From positions 576,001-640,000 of the forward strand of contig BK006947.3 of NCBI GenBank assembly GCA_000146045.2: 64,000 bases of DNA, written 5' to 3'. Source of the DNA: TPA_inf: Saccharomyces. Its lineage: Eukaryota. Below the pieces are notes generated by a model. That model was not told the origin of the DNA. It did not search any database and worked only from the letters and a program-made list of their open reading frames with translations. A program made the translations under genes and the position numbers. This document shows, one piece after another, positions 52,758-52,875 of the stretch. The first letter of the stretch is position 1. Each line of letters opens with the position of its first letter.

Positions 52758-52875
52758 GTCACGTGCAGCTTTTTAAAAATATTTTAAAACATTTTAAAAA
52801 ATATACATTTTTTTATTATTTTTTTATATATTAATGTTAAAATTTATTTATGTATTTGTCTTCCGAAAAGTAAAA
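52758..52875. other. CEN14: Point centromere CEN14 (CDEI 52758-52765 gtcacgtg; CDEII 52766-52850, 85 bp and strongly AT-rich; CDEIII 52851-52875 tgtatttgtcttccgaaaagtaaaa)
   Basis: CDEI fits RTCACRTG (Cbf1 site); CDEII has the correct length and A/T runs; CDEIII contains the invariant CCGAA core in the TGT.T.TG..TTCCGAA.....AAA context. Located between DOM34 and CIT1, as expected for chrXIV. Confidence 0.92.

Follow-up and report, generated by a model that had tools for sequence, protein, structure and literature searches.

A 118-bp element between DOM34 and CIT1 identified as CEN14, the point centromere of Saccharomyces cerevisiae chromosome XIV

The 64-kb stretch of Saccharomyces DNA analyzed here (the window, to whose first base all coordinates refer unless stated otherwise) contains a 118-bp element that we identify, with a probability of about 0.98, as CEN14, the genetically defined point centromere of S. 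cerevisiae chromosome XIV. Every sequence-level defining feature of a Saccharomyces point centromere that we tested was present, and no argument against the assignment emerged from the sequence. The element acts as double-stranded DNA and codes for neither protein nor RNA. CEN14 is already known, and its recovery is no discovery but the recognition of a textbook feature; it has been mapped, sequenced, excised and placed in plasmids for decades, and point centromeres are a textbook model of kinetochore assembly.

Anatomy and uniqueness of the element

The element comprises three contiguous parts in the order CDEI-CDEII-CDEIII, all on the plus strand, and is flanked by two protein-coding genes. 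The extents of the whole element, of CDEI and of CDEIII were read directly from the sequence.

51456-52616, plus strand: DOM34, encoding a pelota-family ribosome rescue factor; left flank, stop codon 141 bp before CDEI
52758-52875, plus strand: whole element, CEN14; 8 + 85 + 25 = 118 bp
52758-52765, plus strand: CDEI, GTCACGTG; 8 bp, fits the consensus RTCACRTG
52766-52850, plus strand: CDEII; 85-bp A+T-rich spacer, 92.9% A+T (6 G/C bases)
52851-52875, plus strand: CDEIII, TGTATTTGTCTTCCGAAAAGTAAAA; 25-bp pseudo-palindrome, TGTWTWTG..TTCCGAA....AAAA
53622-55061, minus strand: CIT1, encoding mitochondrial citrate synthase; right flank, stop codon 746 bp beyond CDEIII

The first-pass annotation had described a 118-bp point centromere with an intact CDEI, an 85-bp CDEII of more than 90% A+T rich in homopolymer runs, and a CDEIII carrying the essential CCG, and our measurements bear out each part of this description. 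CDEI is the predicted octamer and contains the E-box CACGTG (52760-52765). Within CDEIII we located the TGT half-site (52851-52853), the central conserved G (52858) and the essential CCG (52863-52865). Re-inspection thus turned up neither a missing CCG nor a CDEII outside the 78-86 bp typical of point centromeres; CDEII is exactly 85 bp long, and its A+T content likewise falls inside the point-centromere range of about 90% or more. The length, spacing and orientation that had been claimed also stand, and the composite arrangement is unique in the window. The total of 118 bp lies inside the range of about 111-120 bp reported for point centromeres, and 14 of yeast's 16 centromeres measure 117-119 bp (PMC10381965).

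CDEII is distinguished by its homopolymers as well as by its composition. Nine runs of A or T of at least 4 bases cover 46 of its 85 bp, giving a run fraction of 0.54 (54%). For comparison, the run fraction of wild-type CEN DNA is 0.53, and among synthetic centromeres those exceeding 0.38 were the more stable (PMC10476280); CEN14 lies on the favorable side of these thresholds. The left half of CDEII (52770-52801) is organized as three TnAn blocks, T5A5 at 52770, T4A4 at 52782 and T4A6 at 52792, whose starts are spaced by 12 and 10 bp, near one helical turn. A repeat search of 52700-52950 returned just low-complexity A/T palindromes within CDEII (of the TTTTAAAA type) and, upstream, a single weak direct repeat of 12 nt, and A+T composition accounts for all of them.

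Each of the two short motifs is unremarkable when taken singly. RTCACRTG occurs 3 times in the window against 5.8 expected, and TTCCGAA 12 times against 9.6 expected; both are at about chance frequency, and only their combination is therefore diagnostic. The composite pattern TCACRTG-N(76-88)-TGTWTWTGNNTTCCGAA has a single match in the 64-kb window, both strands counted, and none in 100 dinucleotide-preserving shuffles. The 25-bp CDEIII consensus TGTWTWTGNNTTCCGAANNNNAAAA is matched at 52851-52875 with 0 mismatches, and this is the sole site in the window within 3 mismatches. CDEII is alone in 64 kb in reaching at least 90% A+T over 85 bp, against a window average of 61.9%. Mononucleotide shuffles of these 85 bases give a run fraction of 0.24 +/- 0.09, below the 0.54 of CDEII, which 11 of 10,000 reach. 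The complete CDEI-CDEII-CDEIII element is present in one copy within the window, which is part of chromosome XIV.

These figures bear directly on whether the element might be a chance juxtaposition, that is, an ordinary Cbf1/Pho4-type E-box and a TTCCGAA flanking A+T-rich 3' intergenic (terminator) DNA that has no centromere function. The unexceptional counts of the single motifs would fit such a reading, as would the general A+T richness of yeast 3' intergenic regions. What it does not accommodate is the absence of the composite from all 100 shuffles, the perfect CDEIII match, the sole stretch of 85 bp at 90% A+T or above, and the finding, detailed below, that both cores, 84-87 bp apart, are the sole invariant blocks in the spacers of other Saccharomyces. 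Moreover, DOM34 and CIT1 both point inward, so there is no promoter at the element for an E-box to serve. Chance juxtaposition, to which we assign a vanishingly small probability, is excluded by the shuffles and the conservation pattern. A promoter and terminator scan of 52400-53700 gave counts at or below shuffle expectation, with models that are of bacterial type and not applicable to yeast; it is uninformative.

Gene context and assignment to chromosome XIV

The annotation had placed the element between DOM34 on the plus strand and CIT1 on the minus strand, both pointing at the centromere, and the open reading frames and protein matches agree. The DOM34 product (386 aa) is identical over 386 of 386 residues to the yeast Dom34 structure PDB 2vgm and matches S. 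cerevisiae Dom34p at 100% identity, and the CIT1 product (479 aa) matches citrate synthase PDB 8gqz over its full length, residues 1-479. The two genes are convergent, each transcribed towards the centromere. This arrangement is that of CEN14 in SGD, which lies between YNL001W/DOM34 and YNR001C/CIT1; flanks and orientation are the same, and we detected no difference.

The first-pass annotation also ranked the element as the most structured non-genic signal of the window, a judgment that is a matter of opinion. Besides the centromere, the window contains an RNase MRP RNA gene, one snoRNA gene and three tRNA genes:

9589-9918 and 10083-10183, plus strand: RNase MRP RNA gene (Rfam, 74 bits) and C/D-box snoRNA snR66 (Rfam, 115 bits), listed in that order and about 165 bp apart
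26311-26386, plus strand: tRNA-Ile(AAU)
55845-55917, minus strand: tRNA-Pro(AGG), right of the centromere
56598-56673, plus strand: tRNA-Asn(GUU), right of the centromere

The last two lie 3-4 kb rightward of the centromere, just past CIT1. Because the Dom34 and Cit1 flanks, the identity of the interval to a chromosome-scale S. cerevisiae contig (L001, below), the chromosome-14 tags of sister-species orthologs and the RNA genes all fit, we take the element to be CEN14 and the window to be pericentromeric chromosome XIV. The flanks, the strain assemblies and the sister-species tags thus uphold the CEN14 label of the first-pass annotation. We further assume, in line with SGD coordinates, that the window starts at chrXIV 576001. 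On that assumption, CEN14 would lie at about 628758-628875 of the chromosome, and the position of the element is consistent with the 628717-629051 fragment used in published excision experiments (PMC490027).

A full-text search of the available paper library did not find the exact 25-bp CEN14 CDEIII in print, and a printed CEN3 CDEIII oligonucleotide was used as the comparison sequence in place of a printed CEN14. The tie to published CEN14 experiments is accordingly made through gene context and strain assemblies.

The left part of the window shows a second recognizable layout. The tRNA-Ile(AAU) gene, on the plus strand, comes after two minus-strand open reading frames, at 22376-23242 (about 284 aa from the ATG) and 23936-25792 (about 612 aa), and this layout at 22376-26386 matches the right inverted repeat composed of YNL019C, YNL018C "Centroid" and tI(AAU)N2 (PMC9731477). 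Inverted repeats with Centroid genes bound a 24-kb flip/flop inversion polymorphism near CEN14, and the two Centroid genes lie 28 and 58 kb from CEN14 (PMC9731477). The Centroid gene nearer CEN14 is inside the window, and its partner repeat would fall just beyond the window's left end.

Conservation within and beyond Saccharomyces

Variation within S. cerevisiae was assessed from the DOM34-CIT1 spacer of six strain assemblies; the exact Dom34 protein is present on S. cerevisiae contigs of 740-830 kb. Across the whole 3.6-kb DOM34-CIT1 interval, the window and the chromosome-scale contig L001 (771 kb) agree base for base, and the 118-bp centromere is identical in 4 of the 6 chromosome-scale assemblies (L001 and three more). 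CDEI and CDEIII show no differences across the six strains. In CDEII, up to 7 of 85 positions vary and there are 1-bp length changes; its TnAn blocks are retained in S. cerevisiae strains. Fewer than 1% of positions differ among the strains in the coding regions flanking the centromere. Fast evolution of CDEII, as seen in this comparison, has been described for yeast centromeres (PMC3155921). Over the 3.6 kb between the start codons of DOM34 and CIT1, no strain diverges more than L002 (GCA_947370505.1), in which the spacer between the centromere and CIT1 is about 62 bp shorter (L002:4420-5105, corresponding to window positions 52876-53621). The centromere of L002 carries 7 of 85 differences in CDEII and none in CDEI or CDEIII.

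Comparison was extended to other Saccharomyces, counted as six and comprising S. mikatae, S. kudriavzevii (two strains), S. arboricola, S. uvarum and S. eubayanus (two assemblies). The order of DOM34 and CIT1 is the same in all Saccharomyces loci examined, and the orthologous genes in sister species are tagged as chromosome 14 (SMKI_14G3160, SUVZ_14G3180, SKDZ_14G3180). Every other-species spacer contains, in the same orientation, CACGTG followed by 84-87 bp at 79-94% A+T and then G..TTG..TCCGAA.A..AA. The proportion of invariant columns in an alignment of 10 Saccharomyces sequences was as follows:

CDEI: 75%
CDEIII: 52%
CDEII: 13%
Each 40-bp flank: 5%

All 10 aligned sequences share the E-box CACGTG (52760-52765) without change. 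The invariant bases of CDEIII are G52852, TTG at 52856-58, TCCGAA at 52862-67, A52869 and AA at 52873-74, a set that includes the G of the TGT half-site, the central G and the CCG, which are contacts of Cep3 and Ctf13 (PMC6077249). Across other Saccharomyces, nothing is kept beyond the cores of CDEI and CDEIII, the spacing of 84-87 bp and A+T richness. The three-TnAn-block pattern is missing from the orthologous CDEII of the other species, which suggests that it probably reflects no specific requirement.

The strict consensus RTCACRTG missed S. mikatae and S. eubayanus, both of which were recovered with the relaxed core CACGTG. CDEI in these species is non-consensus, reading ACCACGTG in S. mikatae (L007:4303-4310) and TTCACGTG in S. 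eubayanus (L013:4397-4404 and L014:4399-4406). Across the genus, then, the E-box core of CDEI is invariant and its first two bases are not. The CDEII of S. eubayanus is also less A+T-rich (79-81%), with few homopolymer runs (fraction 0.20-0.21).

The same comparison speaks to a different use of such DNA, as a replication origin (ARS) instead of, or besides, a centromere, in which the A+T-rich stretch would be the ORC-binding and unwinding element. Very A+T-rich DNA with T-rich runs does resemble ARS surroundings, and a 10/11 match to the ARS consensus, ATTTATGTATT, spans the CDEII/CDEIII junction at 52847-52857. A scan of the window, however, found no exact match to the 11-bp consensus WTTTAYRTTTW in or near 52758-52875; the four exact matches in the window are all elsewhere (9466, 15247, 33522 and 33539). 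The blocks conserved between species, CACGTG and TCCGAA, are moreover unlike the ARS consensus. Lacking an exact consensus near the element and having conserved blocks that are not ARS-like, the origin reading was rejected, and we hold its probability to be close to nil.

The centromere reading can also be followed into lineages that split off before the whole-genome duplication. In both Ashbya aceris (L015:5418-5616) and Kluyveromyces lactis (L017:5472-5666), a CDEI-CDEII-CDEIII array lies immediately 3' of DOM34, with RER1 just upstream of DOM34. These centromeres share with CEN14 the CDEI core CACGTG, the CDEIII core TTCCGAA, the orientation relative to DOM34 and the chromosomal position, but CDEII spans 162 bp in K. 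lactis and 166 bp in A. aceris, about double the 85 bp of CEN14. Conservation in synteny takes the same form in other Saccharomyces, K. lactis and Ashbya, with CDEI and CDEIII constrained and CDEII fast-evolving. At the DOM34 locus of Candida (Nakaseomyces) glabrata (L016), no CDEI-CDEII-CDEIII pattern was found within 4 kb of DOM34, indicating either that the link between DOM34 and the centromere is not universal after the duplication or that the centromere of this species is more distant. A flavodoxin-like gene lies between DOM34 and citrate synthase at this C. glabrata locus.

Conservation on this scale is difficult to reconcile with the element being a relic that resembles a centromere, or an inactive duplicate, while the true chromosome XIV kinetochore forms elsewhere. 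The window represents 64 kb of the chromosome, and a second element could lie beyond it. A relic would be expected to decay, however, so the intact state of CDEI and CDEIII, invariant at the six S. cerevisiae strain loci and constrained in other Saccharomyces, counts against this reading. The place beside DOM34 is shared with lineages as distant as Ashbya and Kluyveromyces, and chromosome XIV reportedly becomes acentric once a fragment containing CEN14 is excised (PMC490027). We consider a relic or inactive copy highly unlikely.

CEN14 has a sister in CEN3, the two having arisen from the whole-genome duplication (PMC5074576); of all point centromeres, CEN3 is the best studied. The RER1-DOM34-CEN order of Ashbya and K. 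lactis fits a split in which RER1 stayed beside CEN3 and DOM34 beside CEN14, and is consistent with the descent of CEN3 and CEN14 from one ancestral centromere. CEN3 has the same three-part layout as CEN14, with a CDEI of GTCACATG where CEN14 has GTCACGTG. Set against the CEN3 CDEIII oligonucleotide from CBF3 binding assays (PMC6077249), the CDEIII of CEN14 is identical at 20 of 24 positions, and the differences are confined to N positions of the consensus. The CDEII sequences, in contrast, are unrelated in detail. Chromosome 3 of S. uvarum carries a second full-length DOM34 paralog, SUVZ_03G0620 (P0078; 390 aa, 62% identity), as expected for a duplicate on the CEN3 side. In S. cerevisiae, presumably only a DOM34 fragment is left at the CEN3 side.

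Predicted kinetochore assembly at CEN14 and its published function

The proteins bound at the element and its function in segregation are inferred here from the literature on CEN3, CEN14 and other centromeres. The first-pass annotation had paired Cbf1 with CDEI, a Cse4 nucleosome with CDEII and, through the CCG, CBF3 with CDEIII, and structural studies (PMC10381965, PMC6077249) are in line with these predicted pairings. The CACGTG core of CDEI would be bound by a homodimer of Cbf1, a bHLH-zipper protein; dimeric Cbf1 reads gtCAC[A/G]TG (PMC10381965). CDEIII would be bound by the CBF3 complex (Ndc10, Cep3, Ctf13 and Skp1), in which one Gal4-type zinc cluster of Cep3 is predicted to read the essential CCG and a second the TGT half-site, with Ctf13-Skp1 probably contacting the central G. 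A Gal4-type domain of Cep3 has been placed on the CCG, the sole centromere bases that are intolerant of substitution (PMC6077249). CBF3 would then recruit the chaperone Scm3 through Ndc10, and Scm3 would put a single Cse4 (CENP-A) nucleosome onto the homopolymer-rich, 85-bp CDEII. Two CCAN modules and the outer kinetochore would assemble in turn, attaching the chromosome to the spindle.

Published experiments on CEN14 illustrate the function that we ascribe to the element, and for CEN14 the literature reports Cse4 or Ndc10 enrichment as well as plasmid stabilization. Excision of a 334-bp CEN14 fragment (SGD coordinates 628717-629051) renders chromosome XIV acentric, and the 50-kb pericentric cohesin domain of the chromosome collapses (PMC490027). 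For a plasmid bearing CEN14 and its 500-bp flanks, the loss rate is 2.4 x 10^-4 per cell, making it the most stable among five centromeres tested; in this one study it was lost about 7 times less often than the CEN3 plasmid (16.2 x 10^-4 per cell) (PMC3707968).

Homopolymer runs in CDEII favor stable Cse4 deposition (PMC10476280). We speculate that the architecture of the CEN14 CDEII, with its run fraction of 0.54 and its TnAn blocks, could make it an unusually efficient template for Cse4 and in this way explain its top plasmid stability. We regard this idea as unlikely; the TnAn pattern is not conserved in sister species, which counts against a specific requirement for it.

The comparative pattern described here, of invariant CDEI and CDEIII cores, fixed spacing and a fast-evolving CDEII, reproduces published conclusions. 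For the window itself, CEN14 serves solely as an annotation anchor, fixing it as pericentromeric chromosome XIV and marking the boundary between the left and right arms. If CEN14 does owe its stability to an efficient Cse4 template, the micro-architecture of CDEII, beyond its A+T content, would tune the fidelity of each chromosome.
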